Shown: in pieces, positions 28,830-52,504 of the stretch
Layout of the letters: each line of letters begins with the position of its first letter
Position numbering within the stretch: the first letter of the stretch is position 1
Assembly: GCA_977020255.1 (NCBI GenBank)
Contig: CDROCS010002508.1
Coordinates: 620,001-684,000, forward strand
Direction: 5' to 3'
Length of the DNA: 64,000 nucleotides
Source of the DNA: Obrimoposthia wandeli
Taxonomy: Eukaryota
Notes under the pieces: generated by a model
What the model saw: only the letters and a program-made list of their open reading frames with translations
Database searches by the model: none
What the model was told of the DNA's origin: nothing
Position numbers and translations under genes: made by a program

Positions 28830-30595
28830 TAAATTTATAGTAAACGACAGTAAACTATGAATTACTTTTTATGTAATGAAATATTACAGTATTAACTTAC
28901 AATATATTAAATTGAAAATATGCAAATTATATTATGTTTACAAGTTAATTTATTGATCAAATCATTAAAATTATGATTAATAAGTAAATTACTTGAAGTT
29001 TTGGTTGTAAATTATATTAAAGTAATAACTTACAACATTTTAAACTGAATATATACAACAACAAATAAATATTGTAGTTTACAAGTAAATTAATTGAAGT
29101 TTTTGTTGTAAATTATATTAAAGTAATAACTTACAACATATTAAATTGAAAATATACCAAAATAAATTATGTTTACAAGTCAATTTATTGATCAAATCAT
29201 TAAAATTATGATTAATAAGTAAATTACTTGAAGTTTTGGTTGTAAATTATATTAAAGTAATAACTTACAACATTTTAAACTGAATATATACAACAACAAA
29301 TAAATATTGTAGTTTACAAGTAAATTACTTGAAGTTTTTGTTGTAAATTATATTAAAGTAATACCTTACAACATATTAAATTGAAAATATATCAAAATAA
29401 ATTATGTTTACAAATCAATTTATTGTACAAAACATTAAATTTATGTTTAATAAGTAAACTACTTGAAGTTTTTGTTGAAAATTATATTAAAGTAATAACT
29501 TACAACATATTAAAGTGAATATATGCATAAATATATTATGTTTACAAGTAAATTAATTGAAGTTTTTGTTGTAAATTATATTAAAGTAATAACTTACAAC
29601 ATATTAAATTAAAAATATACCAAAATAAATTATGTTTACAAGTCAATTTATTGATCAAATCATTAAAATTATGATTAATAAGTAAATTACTTGAAGTTTT
29701 GGTTGTAAATTATATTAAAGTAATAACTTACAACATTTTAAACTGAATATATACAACAACAAATAAATATTGTAGTTTACAAGTAAATTACTTGAAGTTT
29801 TTGTTGTAAATTATATTAAAGTAATAACTTACAACATATTAAATTGAAAATATATCAAAATAAATTATGTTTACAAATCAATTTATTGTACAAAACATTA
29901 AATTTATGTTTAATAAGTAAACTACTTGAAGTTTTTGTTGAAAATTATATTAAATTAATAACTTACAACATATTAAAGTGAATATATGCATAAATATATT
30001 ATGTTTACAAGTCAATTTATTGTAAACGATAGTAAACTATCAATTACTTTTTATGTAATGTAATATTATAGTAATAACTTACAATATATTAAATTGAAAA
30101 TATGCAAATTATATTATGTTTACAATTCAATTTATTGAACAAATCATTAAAATTATGATTAATAAGTAAATTACTTGAAGTTTTGGTTGTAAATTATATT
30201 AAAGTAATAACTTACAACATTTTAAACTGAATATATACAACAACAAATAAATATTGTAGTTTACAAGTAAATTAATTGAAGTTTTTGTTGTAAATTATAT
30301 TAAAGTAATAACTTACAACATATTAAATTGAAAATATACCAAAATAAATTATGTTTACAAGTCAATTTATTGTACAAAACATTAAACTTATGTTTAATAA
30401 GTAAACTACTTGAAGTTTTTGTTGAAAATTATATTAAATTAATAACTTACAACATATTAAAGTGAATATATGCATAAATATATTATGTTTACAAGTCAAT
30501 TTATTGTAAACGATAGTAAACTATCAATTACTTTTTATATAATGTAATATTATAGTAATAACTTACAATATATTAAATTGAAAATATGTTAAAAG
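28830..30595. repeat. Very AT-rich higher-order tandem array (subunits of about 70-80 bp)
   Basis: Recurrent ttatgtttacaagt and gaagtttt.gttgtaaattatattaaagtaataacttacaacat blocks. No ORFs. Confidence 0.85.
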
Positions 30596-30631
30596 TCCAA
30601 AAACTTGCAAACAACTTTTATTCAATATATA

Positions 30632-30850
30632 TCAGGATCAATTTAATAATTTTTAAATTTTTTGTAACTGTAAATTTCTCGTTTCGAATAAATCAGGATC
30701 AATTTAATAATTTTTAAATTTTCTGTAACTGTAAATTTCTCGTTTCGAATAAATCAGGATCAATTTAATAATTTTTAAATTTTCTGTAACTGTAAATTTC
30801 TCGTTTCGAATAAATCAGGATCAATTTAATAATTTTTAAATTTTCTGTAA
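30632..30850. repeat. 60-bp tandem repeat, about 3.6 copies, cut by the LTR
   Basis: tcaggatcaatttaataatttttaaattttctgtaactgtaaatttctcgtttcgaataaa three times, plus a partial copy. Confidence 0.9.
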
Positions 30851-30860
30851 GATTGATAAT

Positions 30861-31644
30861 TGTTAATAATAATTTTTGTTACTGAATCAGATTCTCTAAT
30901 ACAAGCTATTTATATCCAATTGGTAAATATCAAAATCCAGTAAGAGACACATGAAATAACAAAAACGCTGCCCACTACTGGAAGCGCGAAATCATGCCCA
31001 CATGCCAATCGATTATAGCGCATCTGGGAATAGGTAGAAAACGATCACACTTGCAAACTGCCCATCTGTCCGCAAGAATCGTATCTGGACAGAGAGGAAA
31101 ATAGATTTGTATAAAATACACACACATACACAAAACTGAGAGTAGGTGAGTGAGTACAGAGAATAAGTGAGTGAGTACAGAGAATAAGTGAGCGATTGAG
31201 TGAGTAGTGAGAGTGAATGAGTGAGTTGAGTGATGTGTTAATGTTGAGTGAGTGTGTGTGTGTGTGAATGGTGCACTTGCGCACACTAACACCACATGTC
31301 GACGATATTCGTCGGCACATGAAAGGGGGAATCTTTCCCTCTTTTCCCTGGCTTTATTATTGTTATCTCTGGCTTCGCGGAATCCACCGCGAAGTTAGAG
31401 ATAACAAACCATCTCCCTGATGAACCCGGCAGGGCGAAACGGGCTTTTTTCCCGTCGGAGATTGATCACTCTTGAGACTAAAATGCCAAAGTGCACAATT
31501 TTAAAAATCGGAACTTTTCCCTAATTAAGGAAAGTTCCCAATTAATTTTTAATTAATTAATTCCCTTTTTTCTTTTATTTCTTTAAAAATTTTATATTTT
31601 TATTTTTCTTTTTTAAAACAATTATTTAATATATTTTCCCAACA
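30861..31644 (-). repeat. 3' LTR (784 bp, TGTT...AACA)
   Basis: The minus strand starts TGTTGGGAA at 31644 after a weak purine tract (GGAGGA) and ends ATTATTAACA at 30861, where the 60-bp repeat is interrupted. The TGTTGGGAA start is shared with the 50086 copy. No partner LTR is available to confirm the boundaries. Confidence 0.65.
31411..31462 (+). ncRNA. Type I hammerhead ribozyme (intact core), antisense to the retroelement
   Basis: Stem I ATCTCC/GGAGAT; core CTGATGA (31417-31423); stem II CCC-GGCA-GGG with an A.C 10.1-11.1 pair; GAAA; stem III ACGGG-CTTTTTT-CCCGT; GTC triplet with predicted cut after 31456. Confidence 0.88.
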
Positions 31645-32000: not shown

Positions 32001-33020
32001 TTATGAAAATTTTTCGGGTGTGATTTGCATCTTTTTAGTGTGGACTCCTTTTTGTGTTTCTATATTTAAGTATTTCCGCACCATGTTGGCGAGTCCAATA
32101 TTTGGGTGATTGTGATTTAGTTCTGATTTTATGCTTTTGGATATTCCTAAATCAACAATGTTGAATAACATCCATTTCTGTAGGCGTAAAGCTTTTAAAT
32201 CATTTGTTAGTCCCACACCTACGATGATGTTTCCATACACAATGTTTTTTACTTCCTCAATTACTTCATCAGCATCTCTACATCCTTGTAACTTTCTATC
32301 CGACAGTCCAGTTATTCTAGTAACGTAATTTCTTACTCTGTCTCTAGTTACGCACAGTGTATCTATAATTACGTTACCTATGTAATTTATAATAGAAACA
32401 CTTGCTAACACTGGCTGTTTATCTACTGATATCACCATTTCGCAATTGAGGAATAAAATTGCTGGTTTCTGTGCGTTTTTTAATTCAAAAAGGGCTATTT
32501 GTTGAGGTTCTTCTGCTTTTCTTATTTTTTCTATAAATAATAGATTTGGTCCTCTTCCTAATTTTATGCTATATTGATTTTCTAATTGAGCTGCTTGTAA
32601 GGTGTAGGTGTGATTTCCTATCATCAGAAAGTTTAATGTCTTATCTGATTTGGTTTTTAAATGGGCTACTCCTAGTACCACGTGAATATCTATTTTTTCA
32701 CAATTAATGTTGGGGAATATTTCACTGAGAGCCATATGGGTTGGTCTTTTTTCATTGGAAAAAATAAGTGCGCTAGTTCTTTCTTCTGTGGTAATTTTTA
32801 ACTTATTAGGAAGAAATGTTTGATTTGAAAACATTTTTCTTCCTCCGTTGTTTCTAAAGTATGCACTGCTAAACTGACGCATCTTTTGATACAAGAATTT
32901 TGCTAAAAACCACCTTTCTGGCATATTTTCCGTTTTTCCTCTTTCTATTTTTGCTGTGCTTTTTGTTTGATCTGACCGAGTGAGCTGGTCTGGAGTCGTA
33001 TCCAGGTGATTGTTATCCAT
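32001..33020 (-). CDS. Retroelement accessory ORF (339 aa) with a C-terminal DEDDh 3'-5' exonuclease domain (REX4/ISG20-like)
   Basis: LNCEMV..., LASVSIINYIGNVIIDT, YVTRITGL, IIVGVGLTNDLKAL and IQ/TQKGVH-type motifs of the REX4/ISG20 family. The first Asp appears as Asn. Confidence 0.75.
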   Translation of the reverse strand: MDNNHLDTTPDQLTRSDQTKSTAKIERGKTENMPERWFLAKFLYQKMRQFSSAYFRNNGGRKMFSNQTFLPNKLKITTEERTSALIFSNEKRPTHMALSEIFPNINCEKIDIHVVLGVAHLKTKSDKTLNFLMIGNHTYTLQAAQLENQYSIKLGRGPNLLFIEKIRKAEEPQQIALFELKNAQKPAILFLNCEMVISVDKQPVLASVSIINYIGNVIIDTLCVTRDRVRNYVTRITGLSDRKLQGCRDADEVIEEVKNIVYGNIIVGVGLTNDLKALRLQKWMLFNIVDLGISKSIKSELNHNHPNIGLANMVRKYLNIETQKGVHTKKMQITPEKFS

Positions 33021-33187
33021 TCTGCTTTAATAGATTTGTTAGTTGAATAAAATAATATAATTATTTCACAGTCTTAAAGTTATAAAAATATCAGTCTTAT
33101 CCATGCAGTATGTGGGATTTGTCATGAAAATAAACTTATTAACAAAAGTTAGACAATTTGTACAAAAGAAGGATGTATGATTATAGT

Positions 33188-33756: not shown

Positions 33757-36700
33757 GTTTTATCCAAAAAGATTTGATTATTGTGTTATATTTCTTTTTC
33801 TATTTTCTATTACAGTATTTATGGATAATTCTGAAGAATTATCATCCTTGGGAATAATATAAATAGTAAAAGGACCTGGGGGCCCACAAAAGTGTTTTCG
33901 TTGTTTTGTTTCTATCCTTTTTGTATGTTTCAAAATTAACATTTTCCATGATATTTGATTTATAAATGTAATTATTTCGATTACTATAACTATTATTATA
34001 AGTTCTTCTTTATTTTCATTCTTTGAATGTTCTTGTTTACTATAGTGCATTTTTAAACTTTCATTAAATGATTTATAGGATATTATTTCTGTTGTTTTTA
34101 ATTTTAATTTAATTCTTATTTTTTCCGTAATTTCAACTTGATTTGTAACTCTGTAAATTTTTGATGTAAATGTTGTGGTATGTAGCAATTGTTTTGTGGT
34201 TATATTTTTAACATATTTCTTAATTTTTACTGTTGACCAACGACCACAAAAAATTGTAGGTTGATATAGTTTGGATATCTTATTTCCTAAAATTGTTAAT
34301 TTTGTTAGATTTTTATAACTTTCAAACTTTTGACTCCATTGTCTGTACATTATTGGTTTATTAGTGATTACGCATTCTCTATTGTCTATTATTATTTTCT
34401 CTGGATATCTTATGTTTTCTATGGTTAAATTTGTTTTAGTTTGTGTATTTTTTAATTGTTTTTCTGAGTCTTTCCAAAAATTAGCATTGTGTCCTCTATA
34501 TCTAATTCTAATGAGGGCTTTATCTAAGTCATCTATTTTTAGTTGAAATTCCCATTTTATCATTATTTTATGTTTTGATATATATTTTGCTGTTGTTTTT
34601 AATATTGATGCTAGGTATATGTGAGTTTCTATAATTCTTTCATAGAGTGTTATATTTTTTAATTTCGACTTAATTCTTATTTTATATTGTGTTTCTGTTC
34701 TTAAAAATGGTATTGTATATTTTTGTGATTTTATTCCTGAAATAACTATATTTTGTTTTCAATCTGTTTGTGTGATTTGCACATTTCCTGTTTTGTTTGT
34801 AAGAAGAGAAATTTTTAACTTTATTGATGTGATTTCAGGTATTATTGTTATTAATCCAAAATTTTTTATGAGATGAGTTGTTGAGTCGAATTTATTTGTT
34901 TGTTGTTGTATGATTGATTGATTGTCATTTATGTTTGTTGCGTTTACTTTCAGTAGGTTATATTTTATTATAAAATATATTATCAATAACATCATTATTT
35001 TACCAATTTCTTTTATTGATATTTTTATTGAATTTCTGGTTTGATGACTCAAAATAGTTTTGTTTTGTTTTTGTGAGTTTTTTATTGTCAACATTTGTAG
35101 AACTGTATTATCATTAGTTGATCTTAAGTTATATTTGTGACTTTTTACTTTTGTATTCTCCTCAGGTATTTCTCGACATCTGTTTATATGTGCTCTTATT
35201 TCTTTTGATTTTGGTTCATTATCTAGTTTAGCTGTTATGTTGGTTCCGTTGGTACTAATGACTGTATATGGTCCTTTGTATGGTTTTGATAATTTGTGAG
35301 ACAATCCTACATTAATTTGTGGATTGTGAATCATCACTTTACTTCCGCTTTTTATATTTGATGGCTTAGTTCTTCTATCATAATATTCTTTGTAATTTTC
35401 TTGTATGTTTTTTACAAATAGTTTAGCTTTTTCGAATGCTAGTTTTATTCTTTCTCTAATTTCTATTTTATATTCAGGTATTTCTAAATATTGTGTAGTA
35501 GGTTGTAGTAATGTTAGGTCAATAGGCATTTGAGGATCTCTGAGGAACATAAGATAAAAAGGTGTTTCTCCTGTGGATGCATGTACTGATGTTCTATATG
35601 CAAAAAGGCATGAGGTATGTGTAAATCCCAATCTGTTTGATTGTTGTTTGTGTATGATGCCATCATATCTTCGAGGGTTCTATTAAATCTTTCTACTAAC
35701 CCGTCAGTTTGAGGGTGATATGGTGTTGTATTGATCTTTTTTATGTGAAAAATTTCAGCTATTGACGCTAATACATTATTTATAAATTCAGGACCTTTGT
35801 CGGTTAATAATTTTCGGGGTGCACCGAAAGTAAAAATAATTTTTTTGACTAAAACCTTCGCGATGGTTTCAGCCTTATGATCATGTGTTGGAAAAGCCTC
35901 TGGCCATCTTGTAAAATAATCAGAAAATACTATTATATATCGATTTCCTCGGGGTGTTTCAGGTAATGGTCCCATTACATCCATGGCAACAGTTTCCATG
36001 GGGGCTGATGGATAAGGTATTGGCTTTAAAGGTATTTTTGTGGTACGTAAAGTATTTTTCCGTTTAAGACATATTTCACATGTTTTATCCAAAAAAGATT
36101 TGATTATTGTGTTATATTTCTTTTTCTATTTTCTATTACAGTATTTATGGATAATTCTGAAGAATTATCATCCTTGGGAATAATATAAATAGTAAAAGGA
36201 CCTGGGGGCCCACAAAAGTGTTTTCGTTGTTTTGTTTCTATCCTTTTTGTATGTTTCAAAATTAACATTTTCCATGATATTTGATTTATAAATGTAATTA
36301 TTTCGATTACTATAACTATTATTATAAGTTCTTCTTTATTTTCATTCTTTGAATGTTCTTGTTTACTATAGTGCATTTTTAAACTTTCATTAAATGATTT
36401 ATAGGATATTATTTCTGTTGTTTTTAATTTTAATTTAATTCTTATTTTTTCCGTAATTTCAACTTGATTTGTAACTCTGTAAATTTTTGATGTAAATGTT
36501 GTGGTATGTAGCAATTGTTTTGTGGTTATATTTTTAACATATTTCTTAATTTTTACTGTTGACCAACGACCACAAAAAATTGTAGGTTGATATAGTTTGG
36601 ATATCTTATTTCCTAAAATTGTTAATTTTGTTAGATTTTTATAACTTTCAAACTTTTGACTCTATTGTCTGTACATTATTGGTTTATTAGTGATTACGCA

Positions 36701-38410
36701 TTCTCTATTGTCTATTATTATTTTCTCTGGATATCTTATGTTTTCTATGGTTAAATTTGTTTTAGTTTGTGTATTTTTTAATTGTTTTTCTGAGTCTTTC
36801 CAAAAATTAGCATTGTGTCCTCTATATCTAATTCTAATGAGGGCTTTATCTAAGTCATCTATTTTTAGTTGAAATTCCCATTTTATCATTATTTTATGTT
36901 TTGATATATATTTTGCTGTTGTTTTTAATATTGATGCTAGGTATATGTGAGTTTCTATAATTCTTTCATAGAGTGTTATATTTTTTAATTTCGACTTAAT
37001 TCTTATTTTATATTGTGTTTCTGTTCTTAAAAATGGTATTGTATATTTTTGTGATTTTATTCCTGAAATAACTATATTTTGTTTTCAATCTGTTTGTGTG
37101 ATTTGCACATTTCCTGTTTTGTTTGTAAGAAGAGAAATTTTTAACTTTATTGATGTGATTTCAGGTATTATTGTTATTAATCCAAAATTTTTTATGAGAT
37201 GAGTTGTTGAGTCGAATTTATTTGTTTGTTGTTGTATGATTGATTGATTGTCATTTATGTTTGTTGCGTTTACTTTCAGTAGGTTATATTTTATTATAAA
37301 ATATATTATCAATAACATCATTATTTTACCAATTTCTTTTATTGATATTTTTATTGAATTTCTGGTTTGATGACTCAAAATAGTTTTGTTTTGTTTTTGT
37401 GAGTTTTTTATTGTCAACATTTGTAGAACTGTATTATCATTAGTTGATCTTAAGTTATATTTGTGACTTTTTACTTTTGTATTCTCCTCAGGTATTTCTC
37501 GACATCTGTTTATATGTGCTCTTATTTCTTTTGATTTTGGTTCATTATCTAGTTTAGCTGTTATGTTGGTTCCGTTGGTACTAATGACTGTATATGGTCC
37601 TTTGTATGGTTTTGATAATTTGTGAGACAATCCTACATTAATTTGTGGATTGTGAATCATCACTTTACTTCCGCTTTTTATATTTGATGGCTTAGTTCTT
37701 CTATCATAATATTCTTTGTAATTTTCTTGTATGTTTTTACAAATAGTTTAGCTTTTTCGAATGCTAGTTTTATTCTTTCTCTAATTTCTATTTTATATTC
37801 AGGTATTTCTAAATATTGTGTAGTAGGTTGTAGTAATGTTAGGTCAATAGGCATTTGAGGATCTCTGAGGAACATAAGATAAAAAGGTGTTTCTCCTGTG
37901 GATGCATGTACTGATGTTCTATATGCAAAAAGGCATGAGGTATGTAAATCCCAATCTGTTTGATTGTTGTTTGTGTATGATGCCATCATATCTTCGAGGG
38001 TTCTATTAAATCTTTCTACTAACCCGTCAGTTTGAGGGTGATATGGTGTTGTATTGATCTTTTTTATGTGAAAAATTTCAGCTATTGACGCTAATACATT
38101 ATTTATAAATTCAGGACCTTTGTCGGTTAATAATTTTCGGGGTGCACCGAAAGTAAAAATAATTTTTTTGACTAAAACCTTCGCGATGGTTTCAGCCTTA
38201 TGATCATGTGTTGGAAAAGCCTCTGGCCATCTTGTAAAATAATCAGAAAATACTATTATATATCGATTTCCTCGGGGTGTTTCAGGTAATGGTCCCATTA
38301 CATCCATGGCAACAGTTTCCATGGGGGCTGATGGATAAGGTATTGGCTTTAAAGGTATTTTTGTGGTACGTAAAGTATTTTTCCGTTTAAGACATATTTC
38401 ACATGTTTTA
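33757..38410. repeat. Direct tandem duplication of about 2325 bp (integrase plus FN3-like ORF)
   Basis: GTTTTA microhomology at 33757, 36082 and 38405. The copies differ only by a few homopolymer/dinucleotide indels and rare substitutions. Confidence 0.92.
33778..34995 (-). CDS. Putative FN3-like type I membrane protein downstream of integrase (one frameshift near 34760); second copy at 36104-37321
   Basis: Signal-like MMLLIIYFIIKYNLLKVNA, YTIPFLRTETQYKIRIKS (FN3 F-strand-like), IMIKWEF...RIRYRG...W, C-terminal hydrophobic ELIIIVIVIEIITFI. Confidence 0.5.
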
Positions 38411-39259
38411 CACCAATTTTTACATCTTCTTTCATGTCAATCCAATAGTATTTTAAATTTAATCGTGAATGTGTCTTTTTTGATGATAAATGTCCTCCTA
38501 GGGCTCCATTATGATATTGAAGAAGTAATTGACACTGAATTTCTTTAGGAATAACTAGTGAATATAGATTTTTGTCATTTAAATAATATAATATTTCATT
38601 ACTATATTTGTATCGTGATTCGTAGATTTTTAAATGTTTTCTTAATTTTTCATCTGTTGGTACTTCGTTTGTGCTAATGTATTTAGTTATTTGCTGAATT
38701 TCATTATCTTTGCTTTGAAGTTTAGTAATTATTTTTTCATCATATTTAGGTTTAATTTTTGGTAAAAAATTTAATTCGATGTCATTTGCAGTTATTTCGT
38801 TTATTTCTTCTCTTATTCGTGATAGACAATCTGCATTAGCGTTAGATTTTCCTTTTCTATATTTTATTTCAATATCATATTTTTGTAAAATCAATGCCCA
38901 TCTCATTAATCTAGATGTTGTATCCTTATGATTTAAAAGCCATTGTAATGGTCTTTGATCTGTGTAAACATAAACCTTTCGACCTAATAAGTAATGTTTA
39001 AAATGTTCCATTGCGAAACAAATAGCTAGGCATTCTCTTTCTATCGTTGAGTAATTCTTTTCATGTTTTTTAAGACCTCTGCTCGCATATGCTATCACAT
39101 GATCTTTTTCGTTATTTTCCTGTTGTCCTAAAACTGCTCCTAACGCATAACCACTGGCGTCAGTCATAACTAAAAATGAGTTATTAAAATTAGGATATCT
39201 AAGTATAGGTTTTTCGATTAGTTTTTGTTTTAAATATTCATAAGATTCTTGTTGTTCTT

Positions 39260-41575
39260 TTACCCATTCAAATTTTTCATCTTTTTAATAAGTTTATTTA
39301 ATGGTATTGCTATTTGTGCGAAATTTCTAATAAATCTTCGATAATATCCTGCAAGCCCTAAAAATTCCTGTATATTTTTTACTGTTTTTGGGATTGGAAA
39401 ATTTTTAATCTTTTCTACATTACTCTCGTCTGGTTGTATTCCTTTTGCTGATACAGCATGTCCTAAGTAATTTACTTTATCTTTTATCCATTCACATTTC
39501 TTTGGTTTTAGTTTTAATCCTGCTACCTGTAATCTTAAGAATACGTTTTCTAAATCTTTTAAATGTTCTTCAAAATTTTTTGAAAAAATAAGAATGTCAT
39601 CGATATATACCATTACGTGATCTGCATCCATTAAAATATGGCTCATACATCTCTGAAATGTTGCTGGAGCTCCGGTTAATCCAAATGGTAAGACATTGAA
39701 TTCATACAATCCTTCTCCTGTTGAGAAAGCTGTTTTATATTTATCTGACTCCTCAATTTCTATTTGCCAGTATCCACTCTGTAAATCTAAAGTTGTAAAT
39801 ACTTGTGCATTTTTTAGTTTGTCTAATATTTCATCAATTCTTGGCAGTGGATAAGTATCTTTGTGAGTGACTTCGTTTAGTTTTCTGTAGTCTACGCAAA
39901 ATCTCAAAGAACCATCTTTCTTTTTAACTAAAACAACAGGTGATGTCCATGCAGAAAAACTTCTTCTAACAATTTCATTTTCTAACATTCCTTTTATTTG
40001 TCTTTGAGCCTCATCTCTGTAGGCATATGGAATTCGGTAGGGTCGTTGTTTTATTGCTGTGTTTGTTGTTAACGGAAGACCATGTTTTATCAAATTTGTT
40101 CGACCTAAATCGTATTCATTTTTAGCAAATATTACATCATATTTCTCCGTTAAAGTTTTAAGTTTTGATTTTTCATAATCATTTAATTTAATATCGTTAA
40201 AATTTATCGTAGGTTTATCTTCTATTTTTTCATTATCTATTAATTCAATATTTTCAATAACACTTATTTTTCCAAGACGTACTCCTTCCTTGAGATGAAT
40301 TTCATTAATGTCTGCATTTAGGATTCTGATTGGTATTGTGTTGTTTTTTATTTTACAAATTATATTTGGCAAAACGTAGTTCAAGGTTTCTTGTTGATAT
40401 TTATAAGGTTCAAATAATACATCTTTTTCTGTGATTATGTTAGTTTCTAGTTGTAACATTGTTTCTGTTCTTGGTTGGAGAATGATATCTCCTTTTATTT
40501 CTAACTCGTATTCATCTTTGGCGTTAGGTCTGTAAATGTCTTTTATTTGATTTTTTTCAAAATCAAAGTGGAAATTATTTCCTAATCTTCTTAATGTATC
40601 TATTCCTATGATCATTTGGCAAGGACAATTTTTCATTATTCTTGTAGGTATTTTTATGAATTTATTTCCTATTTTAAAAAGACAGTCTAATTTTCCTATT
40701 ATATCTACGGGTTGACCGTTTGCTGCTGTGACTTGACTATTTTCCTTAAGAAGAAGTAATTTTTGTTGTGTTTTTAAGAAAGATTCGTCTAAAACTGTTA
40801 CGCTTGATCCTGTGTCAATTAAAGCTTTAAGTTTATATTCGTTAATTTCTACCTTTACATATGGTCGTTTATCGTTATCTTTTTGATTTATTGTATATAT
40901 TGTTGGTGCAGTTGATTTTTGTATAGTTGTTTTATCTATATATTTTTCTAAATCAGGATATTGTGAAGATTCCGTTTTTTCTGTTTCTTTGGTATTTGTA
41001 ATTTTTTGTATATTTGTTTCTCGCATTTCATTTGATAATGTGTTTACTATGTTTTGATGATGATTAAAAATAAGGAATTTTGCCAAAAATGGAAAACATC
41101 CTAAGATTAATTTCCATGTTAATCCTCCAACTTTATAAATATAATATGTTGATAAAATTTGACTTAGAAGAATCTTAAAGCAAATTAGTAGAGCATATAT
41201 TCCAACTAATCCAGAAAATGCTTGTCCAAAAATAAAAAATTTACCCCATATTTTTGACATGGTGTTTTTAGTGGCTTTTATAAAATGATTTGGAGAAAGT
41301 AATAAGTCATAATCGGGACGGCTAATTCCGTCAGGTACTGATCTTTCTATGATTTGTGTTAAAATTCTGGATCTTATTTGTGGAAATAAAATTTCTTTTC
41401 TTAACTTATCTATATCTTCCTGTATATAAATTCCTTTTGTGTTTAATTCGTTATCTGATTGTATATTGATGTCGTTGCTGAGAGTGGTTAATTGTAATTT
41501 TTGTGGTTCTGCGACAATATCTCTTCTTGGAAGTGAAATCCAAATATCTTTTGAAATTTGATAATGAGGTGCCAT
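39260..41575 (-). CDS. Env(gB/chuvirus-like C-terminus)-protease-RT polyprotein segment (771 aa)
   Basis: A single frame contains GIYIQEDIDKLRKEILFP, a TM region FFIFGQAFSGLVGIYALLICFKILL...GGLTWKLILGCF, then DTGS, a dUTPase-like spacer and RT YIDD. The same frame extends upstream to 41740 across one stop (YQCKKV...CTK*LPISYKNNSLFVEPITRI). Confidence 0.85.
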   Translation of the reverse strand: MAPHYQISKDIWISLPRRDIVAEPQKLQLTTLSNDINIQSDNELNTKGIYIQEDIDKLRKEILFPQIRSRILTQIIERSVPDGISRPDYDLLLSPNHFIKATKNTMSKIWGKFFIFGQAFSGLVGIYALLICFKILLSQILSTYYIYKVGGLTWKLILGCFPFLAKFLIFNHHQNIVNTLSNEMRETNIQKITNTKETEKTESSQYPDLEKYIDKTTIQKSTAPTIYTINQKDNDKRPYVKVEINEYKLKALIDTGSSVTVLDESFLKTQQKLLLLKENSQVTAANGQPVDIIGKLDCLFKIGNKFIKIPTRIMKNCPCQMIIGIDTLRRLGNNFHFDFEKNQIKDIYRPNAKDEYELEIKGDIILQPRTETMLQLETNIITEKDVLFEPYKYQQETLNYVLPNIICKIKNNTIPIRILNADINEIHLKEGVRLGKISVIENIELIDNEKIEDKPTINFNDIKLNDYEKSKLKTLTEKYDVIFAKNEYDLGRTNLIKHGLPLTTNTAIKQRPYRIPYAYRDEAQRQIKGMLENEIVRRSFSAWTSPVVLVKKKDGSLRFCVDYRKLNEVTHKDTYPLPRIDEILDKLKNAQVFTTLDLQSGYWQIEIEESDKYKTAFSTGEGLYEFNVLPFGLTGAPATFQRCMSHILMDADHVMVYIDDILIFSKNFEEHLKDLENVFLRLQVAGLKLKPKKCEWIKDKVNYLGHAVSAKGIQPDESNVEKIKNFPIPKTVKNIQEFLGLAGYYRRFIRNFAQIAIPLNKLIKKMKNLNG

Positions 41576-41740
41576 TATGTTTGAGCAGTTTATTTCTTTT
41601 ATGCTAAAAGTGTTAAAAAGTATGATTCTAGTGATTGGTTCTACAAATAATGAATTATTTTTGTAAGAAATTGGTAATTATTTTGTACATTTTTGATGAT
41701 TTCTTATGTTAACTATTACTTTTTTACATTGATAAGTGTA

Positions 41741-42960
41741 AGTAGGTAGAAGGATGGAGTCTAGACCACTTGACCCCCCCCCTAAAGGGTGACATACCAT
41801 AAGGATGACTCGCCACACCATAAGAGTATATGTTGCCTCACCTTCGGTGACCCAACATATACCCTTATGGTATGGCAAGACACCCTTATGGTATGACACC
41901 CTTTAGGAGGAGGCGGGAGGCGGGAGGCGGGGAGGGGAGGGGAGGGGTCAAGTGATCTAGACTCCACCCTTCTTTTGGCTATAATCTATGGTTGTCCATA
42001 ATTCAAAGGGTCAAGTGGTCTAGTCTCCACCCTTCTTTTTGTGATATACCACTATGAAAGGGTCAATTGGCTTAGTCTCCACCCTTCTTTTTGAGATATA
42101 CCACTATGAAAGGGTCAATTGGCTTAGTCTCCACCCTTCTTTTTGAGATATACCACTATGAAAGGGTCAATTGGCTTAGTCTCCACCCTTCTTTTTGAGA
42201 TATACCACTATGAAAGGGTCAATTGGCTTAGTCTCCACCCTTCTTTTTGAGATATACCACTATGAAAGGGTCAATTGGCTTAGTCTCCACCCTTCTTTTT
42301 GAGATATACCACTATGAAAGGGTCAATTGGCTTAGTCTCCACCCTTCTTTTAGTGATCTAGTCTCCACCCTTCATTTAGTGATCTAGTCTCCACCCTTCT
42401 TTTAGTGATCTAGTCTCCACCCTTCTTTTTGAGATATACCACTATGAAAGGATCAAGTGGCTTAGTCTCCACCCTTCTTTTTTTGTGATCTAGTCCATAA
42501 ATTTAGGATAAAGTTCACACTTACCAATTAAGAATGTATGACGTAATCATACACACACTATTCTATGTGAAAATTTAGGCTAAAGTTCTCTCTTATAAGT
42601 TAATGAATGTATTACGTAATCACACACATACTATTTTATGTGAAATTTAGATCAAAGTTTTTCCTAGGCTTTCACATTTATAGAATTATGATAAAATTTC
42701 TTTAAATAACTTCAATTATATATTAAAATAAAAAATAAAATAAGAAAGAAGTCAGAGAATAATACAAAATTAAACACATTTATTATGTAATTTCATAATA
42801 TCATCATCAAACTTAAGTGAATAACATTTACAAAGTAAGAAAGTCCATTCATTATACATTCTTTTCGTTTCAACGACTAAGTTACAACGGAATTAATAGA
42901 AAATTAGTAAAAATATTAATTTATTTGAATATTTGAATGAGAGTTTGAATAAAATGAGAG
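41741..42960 (+). repeat. Internal third copy of the left TIR (diverged; 49-bp subterminal units), truncating the env ORF
   Basis: AGTAGGTAGAAGGATGGAGTCTAGACC at 41741; hairpin loop TTC; GAGATATACCACTATGAAAGGGTCAATTGGCTTAGTCTCCACCCTTC about 6-7 times. Its left flank (AGTGTA) has no matching TSD. Confidence 0.88.
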
Positions 42961-43014
42961 GTAGAATGAATGTAAATGAATAAAATTATGCATGCAAGTA
43001 TGAATGTCATTTAC

Positions 43015-43963
43015 AAGTAAGAGTCTTAGCAAGTGAATGTAATTTTTAAAATAAGAGTGTCGATAGTTTGATTGAATGCAAGTGTAATTTAGACTATAAG
43101 TAAATTAAAATAGAGTTTTTGTTGAATAAATTATAGTTAGATTGAATGCAAGTATGACGAGCAAGTGATTGATAGTATGAATTTCAATACAAGTAAGTGG
43201 GTTTAGCAAGTGAATGTAATTTTAAAAATAATAGTGTCGATAGTTTGATTGAATGCAAGTGTAATTTAGACTATAAGTAAATTAAAATAGAGTTTTTGTT
43301 GAATAAATTATAGTTAGATTGAATGCAAGTATGACGAGCAAGTGATTGATAGTATGAATTTCAATACAAGTAAGTGGGTTTAGCAAGTGAATGTAATTTT
43401 AAAAATAATAGTGTCGATAGTTTGATTGAATGCAAGTGTAATTTAGACTATAAGTAAATTAAAATAGAGTTTTTGTTGAATAAATTATAGTTAGATTGAA
43501 TGCAAGTATGACGAGCAAGTGATTGATAGTATGAATTTCAATACAAGTAAGTGGGTTTAGCAAGTGAATGTAATTTTTAAAATAAGAGTGTCGATAGTTT
43601 GATTGAATGCAAGTGTAATTTAGACTATAAGTAAATTAAAATAGAGTTTTTGTTGAATAAATTATAGTTAGATTGAATGCAAGTATGACGAGCAAGTGAT
43701 TGATAGTATGAATTTCAATACAAGTAAGTGGGTTTAGCAAGTGAATGTAATTTTAAAAATAATAGTGTCGATAGTTTGATTGAATGCAAGTGTAATTTAG
43801 ACTATAAGTAAATTAAAATAGAGTTTTTGTTGAATAAATTATAGTTAGATTGAATGCAAGTATGACGAGCAAGTGATTGATAGTATGAATTTCAATACAA
43901 GTAAGTGGGTTTAGCAAGTGAATGTAATTTTAAAAATAATAGTGTCGATAGTTTGATTGAATG
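43015..43963. repeat. Satellite-like array, 177-bp unit, about 5.5 copies (variant of the 26040 array)
   Basis: The marker ends at 43142, 43319, 43496, 43673 and 43850. Confidence 0.9.
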
Positions 43964-45051
43964 ATCAAATATTCAAATAAATTAATATTTTTACTAATTT
44001 TCTATTAATTCCGTTGTAACTTAGTCGTTGAAACGAAAAGAATGTATAAAGAATGGACTTTCTTACTTTGTAAATGTTATTCACTTAAGTTTGATGATGA
44101 TATTATGAAATTACATAATAAATGTGTTTAATTTTGTATTATTCTCTGACTTCTTTCTTATTTTATTTTTTATTTTAATATATAATTGAAGTTATTTAAA
44201 GAAATTTTATCATAATTCTATAAATGTGAAAGCCTAGGAAAAACTTTGATCTAAATTTCACATAAAATAGTATGTGTGTGATTACGTAATACATTCATTA
44301 ACTTATAAGAGTGAACTTTAGCCTAAATTTTCACATAGAATAGTGTGTGTGTGTTAAAAACCACATTCCTTAACTGATAAGAGTGAACTTTAGCCTTGAT
44401 TTTCACATATAATAGTGTGTGTATGATTACGTCATACATTCCTTAACTTTTAAGTGTGAACTTTCACATGACCTTAATTATACCTTCAAAGTTTCAAGTC
44501 AAAACTGACCTTGACCCTTTGATTTATGGACGACCATAGTGGTATATCAAAGAAGGGTGGAGACTAGATCACTTGACCCTTTGAATTATGGACGATCATA
44601 GTGGTTAGCCAAAAGAAGGGTGGAGACTAGACCACTTGACTCTTTGAATTATGGACGATCATAGTGGTTAGCCAAAAGAAGGGTGGAGACTAGACCACTT
44701 GACCCTTTGAATTATGGACGATCATAGTGGTTAGCCAAAAGAAGGGTGGAGACTAGACCACAAAAAGAAGGGTGGAGACTAGACCACTTGACCCTTTGAA
44801 TTATGGACGACCACAACCCTTTAGTGGTTAGCCAAAAGAAGGGTGTAGACTAGATCACTTGACCCCCTCCCCGTCCCCCCTCCCCCCTAAAGGGTGTCAC
44901 ACCATAAGGGTGTCTTGCCACACCATAAGGGTATATGTTGCCTCGCCATAGGTGAGGCAACATATACTCTTCTGGTGTGGCAAGACATCCTTATGGTGTG
45001 ACACCCTTTAGGGGGGGGTCAAGTGGTCTAGACTCCATCCTTCTACCTACT
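43964..45051 (-). repeat. Right TIR
   Basis: Reverse complement of the left arm; hairpin loop ATA; ends CCTACT followed by the TSD CACAAT. Confidence 0.9.
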
Positions 45052-45204: not shown

Positions 45205-46036
45205 TGTTGGTGTTTTTTTGCATTACAATAGATTTTAGTCTATTTAAATTGACATTTAATTAAAATTACCATGCTAACAATCGGTAAGGTAATTTTTATC
45301 AGCCTCCGGCGGGGTAAAAACCCCGTTACGCCTTGCCAGACTGGTCAGGAAGTCGACAGACAAATGAATTTTTTGATGGGCAGAACGGAGATAAGATAGT
45401 ACTTTTATCTGACTGGAATCTTCCGTCAAGCTCTCTGGTCCTCCCAGCGGAATTGGTCCTCCTCCCCTTCCCTCCCCATCCTCTTTTCCCGTCATCCCAG
45501 TCACCAGCTTAGGAGAAAAATCGATGTCACATACATACACTGCTGTGACTGTGTGTACAATAAACTCTCGTGGATCCCCGACAAACAATTCAAGATCAGT
45601 CCCCAGATTCACCCTGTGTTTTTCTCTTACCTGCACAATTTTAAATCGATTAAATGACACTGTCTGTATTTATGTGTGTGTGCCTCTTTCTCCCTTATTT
45701 TCTCCTCTGTCCAAAAGCGGAGATGATCTCTGTAGCCCACACATACACAAGTTTGTCCCAGACACTCCAGAGGTGATGTGCACTTACATGTAGAACGAGG
45801 AAATATTTTCCCAATCAGTTGTAAGCACAAAACCTGCCACTGTTGTGCTCCCGTTCTACGATTTATCTGTTTCTCTGACGATATAGACTGGCAGATTATA
45901 GATTTCCTTTCAAAATCTGAAATTTATTAAAAATAGTTTACAATTTAATATAAAGAAAAGACTTAAGAAATTTATGACAATACTGATAACTTGGAAATAG
46001 AATATTTGAACAATTTATATTTGGATAATTTATAAC
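45205..46036 (+). mobile_element. Divergent LTR-like segment (old relative of the 30861 LTR)
   Basis: Starts TGTTGG after the purine-rich GAAGAACGTGGGCGAG. Aligns with LTR1 across the ribozyme (ATCAGCCTCCGGCGGGG...CCCGTTACGCC) and at tatttt.tcctctgtcca. The right end is a guess (TTATAACA). No TSD. Confidence 0.5.
45302..45354 (-). ncRNA. Degenerate type I hammerhead (likely inactive)
   Basis: GACTTC-CTGACCA-GTCT-GGCA-AGGC-GTAAC-GGGG-TTTTTA-CCCC-GCC-GGAGGC. Same topology and GGCA loop II as the 31411 copy; core substitutions at G8, A13 and U16.1. Confidence 0.65.
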
Positions 46037-46109
46037 AAAAAGCCCCACACAACAACAACCAAACTTCAACTGAGTCCATGCTCAACATCACTTCACCTCA
46101 CAACAATGC

Positions 46110-46240
46110 CTGAAAACTGCTCTATATATGCTATGAGATCATCCGCAACTGACATGCGAAGCCCAACAACTGCAGCCACTGATTTCACATCAGTTGTCTC
46201 TAGACATGGTTGCCAATCGTCAATACGGCAAACCCGTTGA
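46110..46240 (+). pseudogene. Second RING-H2 remnant
   Basis: LYICYEIIRN*HAKPNNCSH*FHISCL*TWLP: C-x-H-x2-H-x2-C-x3-W spacing with stops. Confidence 0.5.
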
Positions 46241-46937
46241 CTTCACATCCTACCCAATGTGCTGAGCTACCTGCTCGATGTACCTTATTGCAGACCGAAC
46301 CCGGAATCATGTATAGGAGCAGGTGGGTGTTCCCAGTCTAATTCACACCATACTCTTAAGGAGGCACATATGTCCTTTAAAACCGTGCATGTGTTTAAGG
46401 AGTGACATTTTGTGTATCTGTGTAAAAATACATACATATTCAAACATTTTCAAATTAAAACATGCATATATTTTTCATCCGAATAAAAGCAATTTACTGG
46501 ATGCGGATGACACAACGGTCAAAGTGGTGAACTGAAATTGAAAGATTAAGGGCAGAGGACATTTGAATTCCATCAAAAACAAGTTCGAGTGGGTACCTGT
46601 GATTCTTTGCCTACCATTTAAGTTAGCTTCTGAAATTAATAAGTCCTCATATTTACAGACTGAACTATACCAACGACACTAAAGCAATATACGAAACTAT
46701 ATTAATATGAATGATATGCAAAAAATTAAAGTACTGTGTTTTTAAAAAAAACACAATCCCCCTTTTCCCCACACAGATCAGAAAATGTATTATGAGCCCT
46801 TTTAAATGTCTCAAGGCTTCCAAACGTTTGAGATTCGAAAGGTCATCTAGCTTCGCTCGGAGAGCCATACGAGCATATGCAGGTCTTTTGGAGCCAAAAA
46901 TTGCAATCCACAATTCTTGATACGACAGTGTTTCAGC

Positions 46938-47084
46938 AGGTTACCCGGCCATTTCTAGCTAGGATTGAATACTCGCTGATACTGCCATTGTAGTGCGCGG
47001 GTGGCCCCGGACATCCAAGGGCATCACAGGCCTGTTATTGCTCCATCTCATTTGGCTAAAAGCCATTGATTCCTCTAAGAAGTC
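46938..47084 (-). rRNA. 18S rRNA fragment (dispersed pseudogene piece)
   Basis: ACTTCTTAGAGG...GAGCAATAACAGGCCTGTGATGCCCTTGGATGTCCGGGGCC...CTACAATGG...GGGTAACC matches the conserved 3' region of 18S, with substitutions. Confidence 0.85.
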
Positions 47085-47114
47085 AGTTTGTGCTACTTAT
47101 CACACAAATACTAT

Positions 47115-47247
47115 NNNNNNNNNNNNNNNNNNNNNNNNNNNNNNNNNNNNNNNNNNNNNNNNNNNNNNNNNNNNNNNNNNNNNNNNNNNNNNNNNNNNNN
47201 NNNNNNNNNNNNNNNNNNNNNNNNNNNNNNNNNNNNNNNNNNNNNNN
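47115..47247. other. Assembly gap (133 N)
   Basis: Run of n. Confidence 1.
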
Positions 47248-49303
47248 ATATGACAAACATACAATATTTTTTCTACCGTCACACAAACATCCATAGCCCA
47301 AAATGTTAACAAAATACTTCATTTTTAAAAAAGTGATTTGAATACCATGCTTCTATTGGACGATTGAAAATTAATACATTATAATTAGTTTTATTTTTTT
47401 ATTTTGTTTCCTAATATTTGTATCGTGTTTAAATATATTTTTTAAATAAACATTTGTCTTTTTCAATCAGTTTTATATTTAGAATGAATCATCTTCGAAT
47501 TTTTTATTACTCTGAAAGATATTTAAAAAGGAAACCGTGTAATAAATTAAAAAGGCATCAAATTATACGTGTTATCAATCATGTGAAAAATCAAAAGTTG
47601 AAAATAAATATTTAATTGAAACTTAACCACATCTGATATCGATCAATTCAAAATTATTTTGGAAAATTTACATACCTGATTATGTATAAAAAGGAAATTC
47701 TTTTAAGATTGAAGCCGATCCCTGTCTGATTTTTAGGGATGACTTTGGTTATTTGATTTGTCCACATTTAGATGGGTTAATATAGAATATCGCAATATGG
47801 CTTTATGGATACTATGTTGCTGGTGATAAAAAATAAATAACCTCTTTGGACTTTGAGTGTAGCTAATATAGTGTTTTATATTTTATATTTGAGTTGATTT
47901 AATAAATATATTGAAATTTATTTTTGTCTTATATTTTTGTTTTTTTCTATAAACATATAAGTCTCACCTACATATTTTATTATCCATCTACTCTTAACGG
48001 GTATAAAAAATGTAGCAATTTATTTATACTTAAGTATCATCTAAAATCTCGTCTGTGACAATTCGATACTGACGAGGTCAATAAAGCTATCTGGATTCCT
48101 GTAGTTTTCTATAATCACTTTGATATATATTTTTAGTACTTAGATCCATCCGTGGATATCAGGTGTGAAATTCATAAAGAAATTTACGAAATTTCACTCC
48201 AAACACACATGTAGGGGTTGGATTAGACCGGACACATCCACCTATTAGTAAGTCCTAATCGTTCACTTCAGGAAGTACATATCCAATTGGTGGTGTTCTT
48301 TCTGCATATGTAAGGTATCCTCAAAGTTTTATATATGATGTACACTTACAATTGTAAAATTTTATATCTGAAATCACGTACCACTATCATTGAAGTTAGG
48401 GGTAACAAATACGAATTATATAGTGCCACCCCCTAGAAACAGTTGTAATTAGGTATTGTAACAGAGTTATAACTGTACTAATTGTTGTGTTTATAATAAT
48501 AAAAATAATTAACCTCAAAACTTGAAAAGTTATAATAACCCAACTTCTAGCGCTGTTCAAAAACTCAATTCATTTGAAAGCGACTAAAATATTGTCCAAA
48601 GCTGAGACTAAACCTACTAGAAAAGAACACATAATAAGAAGGTCAATTCAAATTAAGTCGACAGGCTTATCATTTGTCCAATATCTTATTCGGTTTTGGT
48701 ACAACAGGTTCTTTTTCAGACTTACATTACACTACAATAGTTTTAGGGATATAATTCGGATCATTGAACACAGCACAACTATACAGATTTGATAAGACTA
48801 TATAGGCCAAGACAATCAATAAGACTTAAATCTATAGGACTTACGTTGGGGGCCTTCATACGAGAATTCTACAACCATTTTTGATAGAAAATCCCCACAA
48901 AATAAATACCTTGATGTAGACTACCTTTGGCCTGACTCTGCATCAAGCTAACTTAAGTATGAAAATATTGAAAAATTAATAGAAAGTGCTGTAAGCAAGA
49001 GTTGCAACACTTTGAGTACTGCACATATTAGGAAAAAGGAAGATATTGTAATTACCTCAAACAGAAAATTTATAAAAGTAATAATGAGAAAAAACTCTCA
49101 ACCAATTGAAGAAAAGGATAAAATATTATCCAAAGAATTAACTGGACATTGATGAATTCATCATAAAATTACACAAATTCTTATTATTCTTTTGAAGACT
49201 AAGAAGTAATTAGCATGAATTTTATCAATAAAAACTAAATATATCTAATTGGTTAATTTTATTTCGTTGGAAAAATAAATTTCTCACTCTTCGTGATCAA
49301 AAA

Positions 49304-50086
49304 TGTAAGCAAAATGGAAAATAATGATTCAGAAAATTGTATTTCAAATAATGTGTGCCAAATTTGCCAATATATAACTTTTAAGAAGAAGATAATCCAA
49401 TAATTTGTTTTTGTCCAAATTTTCTGCCGACATTGGCTTAAATTTCATTGTGCAAGTGCACACAAACACTGCACAGTGTAATTAGGGAGACAGCTGCGGC
49501 TGCAGGGAGACACACATCGGCACAGCCCTGCAGAAAGAGAGAGAGATTGTCACTGTCTGAAGATTGATGGCAGTGGTTGCCGATAACATGCAGAAGACCG
49601 CCGCCACCGAGAGAAGAGAAGGCAGGATCGCATCCAGGGAAGGCGGTCTGGTCAGCAGAGGTTGTCGAGCGATGGCAGAGAAAATCGATGCCAGTTCATC
49701 TGGCCGGATCTGATTGGCGAGTCGAATGGTCAATGAAGGAAGGCAAGACAGGAAGGTGTGGATGGAGGTTCGGAGCTCTGCTACCCGCGCCAAGGCAGAT
49801 CGCAGGAGTGGGGTGGTTCTGTGAAACCTGGACGACTTTGTGCAGGTAAGTGTTTTTCCTCTAATCTGTTTATTATCTCTGACTTCGCAGGCATTTTGCC
49901 CACCGCGAAGCCAGAGATAAATCTGCAGTCCCCTGACAAACCCTGCAGGGCGAAACCGGTTAAGCCGGTTGGGGACTGACAAAGATTATTACAAATGCCA
50001 AAGTGCATTTTGAAATTCACCTCACTAACAATTTTCCTAATTAAAAAAAAATTCAATTAAAAATTGCCCACTAAACATTCCCAACA
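49304..50086 (-). mobile_element. Divergent solo-LTR-like segment with a hammerhead remnant
   Basis: The minus strand starts TGTTGGGAA at 50086. Shares TGCACTTTGGCATTT, the TTATCTCT...AGAGATAA hairpin and the ribozyme with LTR1. The tentative end GCTTACA at 49304 gives 783 bp versus 784 bp, but no TSD was found. Confidence 0.55.
49926..49978 (+). ncRNA. Degenerate type I hammerhead
   Basis: CAGTCCC-CTGACAA-ACCC-TGCA-GGGC-GAAA-CCGG-TTAAG-CCGG-TT-GGGGACTG. All three stems pair; G8->A and GTC->GTT changes, both in former CpG contexts. Confidence 0.78.
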
Positions 50087-51004
50087 CATGCAAAACATTT
50101 TAAAGAAATTAATTCTTCTTTACATCTGTGTCAAAAACTTTTATAAGTTAAAATAACTAAAAATATAGGAAAAATAAGCCAATTTTATAATGAATAAAAT
50201 ATTCTAATAATTTAAAATATACTCTTTGATAGATAAAATTAAACAAAATAACATTTAAATAGTTTGCACACATCCAATTATTTTAAAAGCTGTTGGCCAA
50301 AGGAGTTCATTGAACTATTAATCGAATAAATATACTGATTTAAGATTTAAGCACATTCGTATTGTAAATTATGTAAGTTGGTGTACATACGAGTACAACA
50401 TATCATTCTCAACACATTTGGTATATTCAATTATTCTTTTTTTATTGTTCTTAATAAAATGTTACATTACAATGTTATTTTTCAAGCGATTTTTATGTTC
50501 TCATATTTCTGTGAATTTTATTAGTCACATATTTTTATTTCTGTTTATAAAAATAATATTATATTGATATTGATAAACAATGTTAATGTCTATTAAACAT
50601 AAGTCATGCCAATTATGTTATACTAAAAACACTAGAAATTTAGCATAAAATATTTCTCTAACAACAAATATTGAGCATTTAAAATTATACTTACTGGATT
50701 TTTATGATCTTATCAACTTTACGTGTTAAAAAAATATCAAAATATGTATCGAAAAAAAGAAAATACACATAATGATGTAGTGAGAAATAAAATGTTATAA
50801 AAAAAACCTAAACATTTCGAACTGTAAAAGAATTATTTCAGATTTATAATTAAAATATTAAAATGATTTATTAAATTGACGAAATTATATCAACTAAAGA
50901 AATTATAAGTTTTATTAAAATTATATCATGTGAATTTTATTATTTTTCTTTTAAAAAATTAATAAATTTGAATATCTGTTAACTTTTGTTCGAAATAAAT
51001 AACC

Positions 51005-51165
51005 ATGCAATTCATAAAAATAGCAAACTATGATGTATTCGGTTGGAGTGTATCTGGAAACGAAACTACTGTTGTAGTCAAGCAGAAAAATGACCGCTTA
51101 AATGTTGCTTTTGATATAGGCATTTCTCCGCCGGCTGTAGTAAATTGTGGCCATGTTTTAATTAG
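51005..51165 (+). CDS. TM-type tRNase Z-like metallo-beta-lactamase, exon 1. Model: join(51005..51165,51202..51403,51544..51837,59292..59429), 264 aa
   Basis: GWSVSGNET...VAFDIG (TM/plant-type N-terminus). A 36-nt GT-AG intron (51166-51201) is removed to give VLISHGHTDH. Confidence 0.85.
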
Positions 51166-51201
51166 GTATTGCTTTTTAATTTTCATATTCAGCTTATTTA
51201 G

Positions 51202-51403
51202 TCATGGTCATACTGACCATGTAGCCGCTTTGCCATTACACATTCGAAAGAGAAATCTAGTAAAGTCTCCACCTGCTGTATACTATATGCCTCAAGTTCT
51301 AGTTGAGCCAATGAAAGCCGTTTGTAAGGGATTCTCTACCATGGATGAAAATGACACAACCAACGTGGAGTTTATTGGAGTTCGCCCGGGAGATAAATTC
51401 AAG
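51202..51403 (+). CDS. tRNase Z-like exon 2
   Basis: HGHTDH (HxHxDH), PPAVYYMP; GT donor at 51404. Confidence 0.88.
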
Positions 51404-51543
51404 GTTTTCAGATGATTTCGACTAATTTTGCAGATTATTTTGAATAACTCAAATATTTTGAAATTAAACAACATCTTAATACCTTTACCATATTTATTTT
51501 AGTATGGATAATGAGTTATATCGTTTATATAGATTATTTTCAG

Positions 51544-51837
51544 CTCAAAGACAACTGGAACGTGGAAGTGATTGGCACAAAGCACCGGACTAGTGAGAGT
51601 GTGGGCTATCTGCTTTTCAACAGCCGCATCAGCCTCGACAGACCTGAAGTCGCGTATCTGGGCGACACCACATTTTCCATATTCCACCCACAACCGACTC
51701 ATCCGGCTCTGTTGTACTCGCGTCTGCTCATAACCGAGATGACCTTTGTCACTACAGACAGTCGACGTCGGGAATCCTGCGTGCAGCACGGCCACAGCTG
51801 TCTCGCTGACTTCCAAGAAAACCCCGACATCTTTCAA
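51544..51837 (+). CDS. tRNase Z-like exon 3
   Basis: CAG acceptor; KHRTSESVGYL, PEVAYLGDT, ITEMTF (ExT), HGH (HxH); GTTAGT donor at 51838. Confidence 0.85.
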
Positions 51838-52504
51838 GTTAGTCACATTCGCAATCGACAGCTCATCGACCTTTTACCGACACAATTTAAATCCTATACA
51901 GGAATGAACGCGCAAATTGGCGTATAGAGAATTCATCTGTAAGAAAGATATCATGATCAATCGATATTTAAAGAATAACAATGCTGTGCAAGGTTTAAAA
52001 GTAGTTTCCTTAAACGAGGTCCCATTGAGTGTCTGATTTCTTTTTGTATGCTAAAAAACAGCGAAATCTTCAAGAACTCAGAGAAACTATCGCAGATCCA
52101 CTTGTAACTGTTGGCATTGCATTATGTTTGTGGCAGATTGCAGAGGCACATACAACACGAAGGCAAGTAGTTTGAAAACTTGGAATAGATTCTGTTTATG
52201 TTGTTTTGAACTGTTGACGTCTTTACTATTGATGTGTATCATATAAGTTCAATAAGTGGTTGATTACAAAAGAGTGTTTGTTTGAACATGAAGGTCGGGG
52301 GAAACTTTCTTATCACCCTGTAAAAGGTTTGGGATCTGTTTGCATTATTACAAAAGTATGTGAATTCTCAAAATGCGTGTTGTACTTATTGTCTTGTCAA
52401 TTTAAAAAATATATACTAAGATATTTCAAATATGATACAGTAATAAATTATACTTTTTAGTTATAATGTTCTTTATTTTATGATAATGGTTTCTTACTCC
52501 CTTC

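Follow-up and report, generated by a model that had tools for sequence, protein, structure and literature searches.

A 64,000-nucleotide stretch of Obrimoposthia wandeli DNA (contig CDROCS010002508.1, positions 620,001 to 684,000; hereafter the window) contains three hammerhead ribozyme motifs associated with a Gypsy retrotransposon and its long terminal repeats (LTRs). An earlier note on this DNA had described three such motifs, and all three are present, with the stems quoted there, at 31411-31462 (+), 49926-49978 (+) and 45302-45354 (-). Judged by sequence, these motifs and the family they belong to are type I hammerheads that lie antisense in LTRs, with cleavage predicted. The features of the window are collected in Table 1.

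Table 1. Hammerheads, repeats and coding regions in the window (ORF, open reading frame; RT, reverse transcriptase)
Feature	Position	Strand	Remarks
Hammerhead copy 1 (type I)	31411..31465	+	12 core bases intact; predicted cut after 31456; U1.7 at 31463
Hairpin, ~22 bp, directly 5' of copy 1	31360..31408	+	hairpin and ribozyme together, z -7.6
Hammerhead copy 2 (type I), decayed	49926..49978	+	G8>A, G10.1>A, loop II G>U; predicted cut after 49970
Long hairpin directly 5' of copy 2	49873..49920	+	homologous to the hairpin preceding copy 1
Hammerhead copy 3 (type I), decayed	45302..45354	-	G8>C, A13>U, U16.1>C, one stem I mismatch
3' LTR of Gypsy element, holds copy 1	30587..31644	-	preceded by purine-rich tract ending GGAGGAT
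Accessory ORF, 3'-5' exonuclease (RNase T / DEDD type)	32001..33026	-	
Integrase and downstream ORFs, frameshifted	33757..38410	-	2.3-kb tandem duplication, 99.8% identical
Monjiviricetes-type fusion glycoprotein, C-terminal part, in frame with protease and RT; then RNase H	38349..41740	-	
Solo-LTR-like copy with hammerhead copy 2	49265..50414	-	internal TGTTGG at 50086, outer TGTTGAG at 50414, ends CCAACG
Solo-LTR-like copy with hammerhead copy 3	45205..46037	+	TGTTGG...TATAACA

In copies 1 and 2 an A replaces G10.1, so that stem II loses its first pair. Of 30 kin of copy 1, 28 have G at position 10.1, and the substitution there, like an upstream GCC>ACC change, is private in copy 1; despite the intact core, these two changes probably weaken it. 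Private decay also accounts for the stem I C missing from copy 2, and for the A-G mismatch in stem I and the C>T wobble in stem II of copy 3. Folded alone, copies 2 and 3 adopt the three-way fold with z scores of -3.7 and -1.4 against shuffled sequences, copy 2 being the sole copy that beats its shuffles. An Rfam scan of the window returned no match at gathering score for any of the three motifs. The case for hammerheads rests on the family rather than on the single copies in the window. The 167-codon ORF at 49482-49985 has no Pfam match.

All three copies lie antisense in LTRs, as the earlier note had stated, but its description of these LTRs as starting with TGTTGG needs qualification. TGTTGG at 50086 is the LTR start in most kin of copy 2, but the repeat of copy 2's own sub-subfamily reaches TGTTGAG at 50414, a terminus common to 3 of 30 kin. 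Neither a clean target duplication nor a nearby primer-binding site (PBS) was found at this locus. The locus of copy 3 likewise has no PBS and no target duplication; its LTR termini are those of a kin locus (L053) that has a 4-bp duplication. Copies 2 and 3 are decayed and lie in solo-LTR-like sequences.

An abundant family carried by Gypsy elements

We searched the 1.35-Gb genome with a pattern comprising the core plus stem II, CTGANGAG-N10-CGAAAC, using the reversed pattern as control. The pattern produced 8,207 exact matches and the control 8, an excess well beyond chance. With the commonest stem II forms and up to two mismatches the genome contains at least 10,085 copies, which is one every 134 kb. 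The family is as abundant as the note had surmised, and this abundance is most of the reason why three copies occur within 19 kb. Grouping the matches by flanking LTR, a check proposed in the same note, placed 28 of the first 30 matches (in contig order) in LTR sequence: their flanks match validated Gypsy LTRs, and 6 are those LTRs themselves. One of the remaining two is a chance match and the other is without assignment. In most copies the motif starts 109-225 bases inside the 5' end of the LTR.

Seven of the eight listed same-strand LTR pairs, chosen by LTR similarity, were examined together with 10 further pairs chosen by motif spacing. All seven similarity-chosen pairs bound complete elements of ~14 kb, one of them longer through an insertion, with TG...CA ends and an LTR identity of 95.8-99%. 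Read by eye, their 4-bp target duplications are exact in six cases and contain one mismatch in the seventh. The 5' LTR is followed by a PBS starting with TGGTGAGC, the 3' LTR is preceded by a purine tract (GGAGGAT/AGGAT), and both LTRs of each of the seven elements carry the motif on the strand opposite pol. The motif-spacing pairs yielded eight complete elements of other subfamilies with the same antisense orientation and with LTRs up to 100% identical. The other two were a pair with pol antisense for which an LTR repeat was unreported and a pair of two unrelated LTRs. In all 15 complete elements found, the motif is situated near the LTR 5' end and antisense to pol. Two more motif pairs were rejected as LTR pairs. 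On contig C3282 a pair of 39 kb belongs to a segmental duplication; on C1743 a pair of 2.5 kb has its motifs in inverted orientation.

The complete elements encode, in this order, gag, an in-frame viral fusion glycoprotein, protease, RT, RNase H, integrase and an exonuclease. The gag match is weak (E value 0.0006, below the cut-off), and one natural frame of 1,789 codons spans the fusion protein, protease and RT. The accessory exonuclease diverges fast, with 39-53% identity between subfamilies. The carrier is an autonomous, envelope-bearing Gypsy (Ty3) LTR retrotransposon that is very abundant and still active. The term "old" that the earlier note gave to this family is overstated, since paired LTRs are 95.8-100% identical, but the family has indeed diversified, with RT 85-87% identical in nucleotides between subfamilies. 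A 138-codon ORF without family occurs between integrase and 3' LTR at L093:3311-3724 (-).

The element in the window is truncated at 41740, with gag and the 5' LTR absent from the window, and its 3' LTR has a TATA-like box on the sense strand at 30907-30914. The 2.3-kb duplication of its integrase region is missing from the complete copies examined and is either a recent event or an assembly artefact. Another repeat family, with palindromic segments, tandem arrays and inverted copies, occupies 24760-27500 and 41740-45050, and one of its copies truncates the Gypsy element at 41740. An AT-rich satellite (28774-30587) abuts the 3' LTR, and similar satellite sequence flanks both sides of an element on contig C4902. 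Elsewhere, a host gene at 51000-51930 (+) has apparent introns of only ~31-36 bases (read by eye), and a fragment beside an N run at 46780-47115 (-), without an Rfam hit at gathering score, resembles a diverged piece of 18S rRNA.

Type C motifs (stem II GTCC/GGAC; 118 copies) have the same LTR ends. No complete type C element was recovered, and the link to coding elements consists of a neighbouring exonuclease ORF, antisense to the motif, at 3 of 30 loci. A related 22.6-kb Gypsy element (G000:C3282:84306-106931; L204:4306 to L206:8931), with 47% identity over protease-RT, has no hammerhead in either of its 2-kb LTRs. This one outgroup suggests that the hammerhead was gained in the present clade. 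The three closest public proteins (P0001-P0003, 42-49% identity) are polyproteins of 3,200-3,800 residues from public metagenome assemblies, with the same domain set and a fusion-protease-RT-integrase layout. No polyprotein relatives were found in viral contigs.

Conservation and decay of the motif

Stem statistics were compiled from 132 distinct motifs, of which 129 could be parsed in registers that maximise pairing. Stem I is open, and each of 14 stem positions is paired in 117-129 of the 129 motifs; at 8 stem positions the pair type changes between subfamilies. The compensatory stem changes claimed in the earlier note are real at this level, but some of the differences it quoted are the private decay described above. 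Position N7 is variable (78 T, 44 C, 7 A). Six pairs make up stem I, and an unpaired U comes after them: U occupies position 1.7 in 125 motifs, this position is unpaired in 125, and the final base of loop II is A in 124. On the ribozyme strand a hand tally gave 134 G-U cells versus 22 A-C cells; three G-U pairs and not one A-C pair hold throughout a subfamily. This excess indicates that it is on the antisense strand that the structure is maintained.

Subfamilies differ at 13-15% of RT nucleotides, and LTR alignments across subfamilies are confined to about -10 to +48 around the core, which is almost the sole alignable LTR segment. Some cross-subfamily pairs also align at the hairpin upstream, at a short motif downstream, at the LTR terminus or at the TATA palindrome. 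Of the 16 comparisons made with type C, 11 produced no LTR alignment. A core that remains alignable while the flanking LTR has turned over, with pairing kept as pair types change, bears out the proposal that the ribozyme was selected across subfamilies.

For each window copy, kin were chosen by LTR similarity. The 12-base core (CUGA-N-GA, GAAA, U, H) is intact in 27 of 30 young kin of copy 1, in 12 of the 27 motif-bearing kin of copy 2 (30 examined) and in 12 of 30 kin of copy 3. Intact cores are thus present among the kin of all three copies. The kin of copies 2 and 3 carry 9 and 17 different core substitutions, none of them in more than four copies. Since these changes are scattered and none is fixed, those in copies 2 and 3 are best described as decay after insertion, as had been suspected. 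An excess of CpG sites among the decay changes was considered and rejected as inconsistent (7.4% versus 6.6%, and 15.6% versus 8.3%).

The trinucleotide GCC directly precedes stem I in 6,277 of the 6,832 motifs that have the loop GGCA. A GGC/GCC pseudoknot is possible in types A and B, alongside an unpaired U1.7 opposite the final A of loop II. An apparent compensatory change of this pseudoknot in copy 2 was rejected as a general feature. Pseudoknots and U1.7 contacts are described as activating in PMC3088659 and PMC9217987.

Known systems and a possible role in cutting antisense RNA

Plant retrozymes, as described in PMC4918200 and 10.64898/2026.07.22.740005, are non-coding and contain a type III hammerhead in each LTR. 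The O. wandeli elements share with plant LTR retrozymes the single hammerhead per LTR, the PBS, the polypurine tract (PPT) and Gypsy-type 4-bp target duplications. In contrast to these short, non-autonomous elements, they are ~14 kb long, encode a full pol and contain type I motifs. Moreover, the accumulating RNA of plant retrozymes bears the ribozyme, whereas the motif described here is antisense to PBS and pol.

Animal type I hammerheads are known from Penelope elements, Terminons and non-LTR retrozymes (PMC7229834, PMC6765202, PMC6431247), which resemble the present family in topology, in their location in the terminal repeat of an animal retroelement and in their thousands of copies. Unlike that group, the present elements have true paired LTRs, a Gypsy protease-RT-RNase H-integrase and a full 4-bp stem II with features of a possible tertiary contact, and they are not tandem. 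Membership in Penelope pseudo-LTRs was rejected on the Gypsy LTR flanks of 28 of the first 30 matches; no search aimed at Penelope RT was made.

The planarian element Burro carries an envelope gene in frame between gag and pol (PMC6431247), and the section of that paper on Burro reports no ribozyme. By description only, the present elements are alike in having a Mononegavirus-like fusion glycoprotein in frame between gag and protease. They differ in size (~14 kb versus >30 kb), in the exonuclease ORF and in the absence of BIR, ankyrin and MATH families from the ORFs scanned. The shared architecture, the genome size and the low GC content point to a planarian as the probable host. The 22.6-kb relative, which encodes a fusion glycoprotein, a RING finger and a dual-specificity phosphatase, is nearer to Burro in make-up.

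We also found look-alikes on 12 phage and metagenome contigs. These are type III permutations with the same stem II and with loop I UGAYGCC or UAAUGCC. Pseudoknotted hammerheads of phages and bacteria are described in PMC3088659. With the phage and metagenome look-alikes the present motif shares stem II, loop II GGCA, the GCC partner, the 6-bp stem I and the UGA that follows; GCC and stem II were part of the search pattern, and the 6-bp stem I and the UGA or UAA lay outside it. The difference in type sets them apart, and the motif is too short to tell shared ancestry from convergence. The phage and metagenome hammerheads (L191-L202) lie on high-GC contigs, directly upstream of apparent genes.

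We found no report of a hammerhead in an autonomous Gypsy LTR, although subscription journals, repeat-database entries and supplements were outside our coverage and a prior mention is possible. An antisense hammerhead in both LTRs of a protein-coding element seems undescribed, and it is the autonomous, envelope-bearing Gypsy carrier that makes this hammerhead unusual. In the literature seen, known retroelement ribozymes process the transcript of the element itself. The antisense orientation calls for a different function: genomic RNA holds the complement alone, so the ribozyme can act solely on antisense RNA. The motif falls in U3, because a TATA-like palindrome lies further inward (305-654 bases from the motif in 24 of 109 contexts). 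The ribozyme is antisense and better conserved than any other part of an LTR that changes fast, which implies that antisense transcription through U3 must matter to the element.

From these sequence features we infer that the motif is retained because of cleavage. Our preferred interpretation, at about even odds, is that the hammerhead in U3 limits antisense RNA over the coding region by cleaving it. The motif would fold with a 6-bp stem I, a 4-bp stem II and an unpaired U1.7. Its substrate could be divergent transcripts of the LTR's own promoter or host read-through from the 3' flank, and this antisense RNA would be cut ~60-180 bases before leaving the LTR. An uncapped 5'-hydroxyl fragment would run on into the element body (from the 3' LTR) or into the flank (from the 5' LTR). 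Small-RNA pathways take up RNA with a 5'-hydroxyl end inefficiently. With long antisense transcripts of the coding region reduced in number, the family may face less double-stranded RNA and a smaller load of antisense small RNAs. More tentatively, an endogenous retrovirus-like element may have recruited a fast hammerhead for counter-defence and not for processing its own RNA: any antisense RNA, small-RNA precursors that read through an inserted copy included, would be cleaved in the 3' LTR ahead of the coding region and be left with a 5'-hydroxyl end.

Several points weigh against this proposal. The counter-silencing purpose, though the most likely one, is read from the position of the motif alone. 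The TATA-like box was seen in only 24 of the 109 contexts, a count made without a shuffled control, and in type A2 the sense strand of the upstream hairpin is the more stable, with 0 of 11 favouring the ribozyme strand. Ribozyme cleavage does not always halt the polymerase, and downstream antisense RNA may persist. Copy 1 folded alone has a z score of -0.07 and a minimum-energy fold that is not a hammerhead. Covariation in the pseudoknot is absent, with a compensating change in 2 of the 100 listed copies (130 have a changed first loop base), and 120 copies are changed on the other side of the pseudoknot alone. Finally, our counts are of copies rather than of independent events, and samples selected by pattern fix the core by design.

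The strongest competitor, though a doubtful one, is that the ribozyme generates the 3' end of a specific antisense non-coding RNA, about 400-600 bases long, and that this RNA, or a small RNA from its hairpin, is the useful product. Such a transcript would begin near the palindromic TATA box and end in the long hairpin plus ribozyme. The near-palindromic TATA box is identical in two subfamilies with otherwise unalignable LTRs, but the sequence from TATA box to hairpin is unconserved between subfamilies. Similarly, the motif is preceded by a hairpin that is long in types A and C and shorter in B. This upstream hairpin favours the ribozyme strand in most types (20 of 21 in type A1, 31 of 40 in B, 21 of 30 in C), but that of type A2 favours the sense strand. 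A splice-donor-like site on the ribozyme strand, found in 5 of the 19 stretches shown, would also fit such an RNA. In the window, GTGCAG/GTAAG occurs on this strand upstream of copies 2 and 3 (49843-49853, +; 45627-45637, -), as it does in some kin.

It is unlikely that a ribozyme captured from a Penelope element, retrozyme or virus is now non-catalytic and persists as a DNA-binding site, as a structure of the sense strand during reverse transcription or as a passenger. Because the subfamilies are related (RT 85-87% identical), part of the conservation is descent; furthermore, activity here is predicted from sequence, and a related element exists without the motif. However, the catalytic positions, and exactly these, are invariant, whereas N7, stems and loop III vary; the wobble asymmetry points to the antisense strand, and the flanking LTR sequence is wholly turned over.

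Processing as in retrozymes, with antisense RNA cut at both LTRs and the resulting 13-kb unit-length piece circularised, is very improbable. One ribozyme per LTR in the same orientation is indeed the arrangement of plant retrozymes (PMC4918200), but the RNA that accumulates from those is a ribozyme-bearing, non-coding transposition intermediate of 0.6-1 kb. A 13-kb antisense piece lies opposite PBS and PPT, and so could not be primed as an LTR template. Least probable of all is that cleavage starts cap-independent translation of an antisense ORF, as type I hammerheads are reported to do in 5' untranslated regions of fungal viruses (PMC13725137), since no antisense ORF of at least 110 codons is common to the 9 elements scanned and the window element has none of 150 codons.

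If cutting of antisense RNA is indeed the role of the hammerhead, an anti-silencing ribozyme could help explain how this family spread to more than 10,000 LTR copies. The family offers a handle on the purpose of genomic hammerheads and supplies its own controls in the form of natural copies, intact and decayed, that number in the thousands. The host genome would be seeded with thousands of orientation-specific RNA cut sites, and strand-specific cuts in thousands of host transcript sites are the corresponding prediction.

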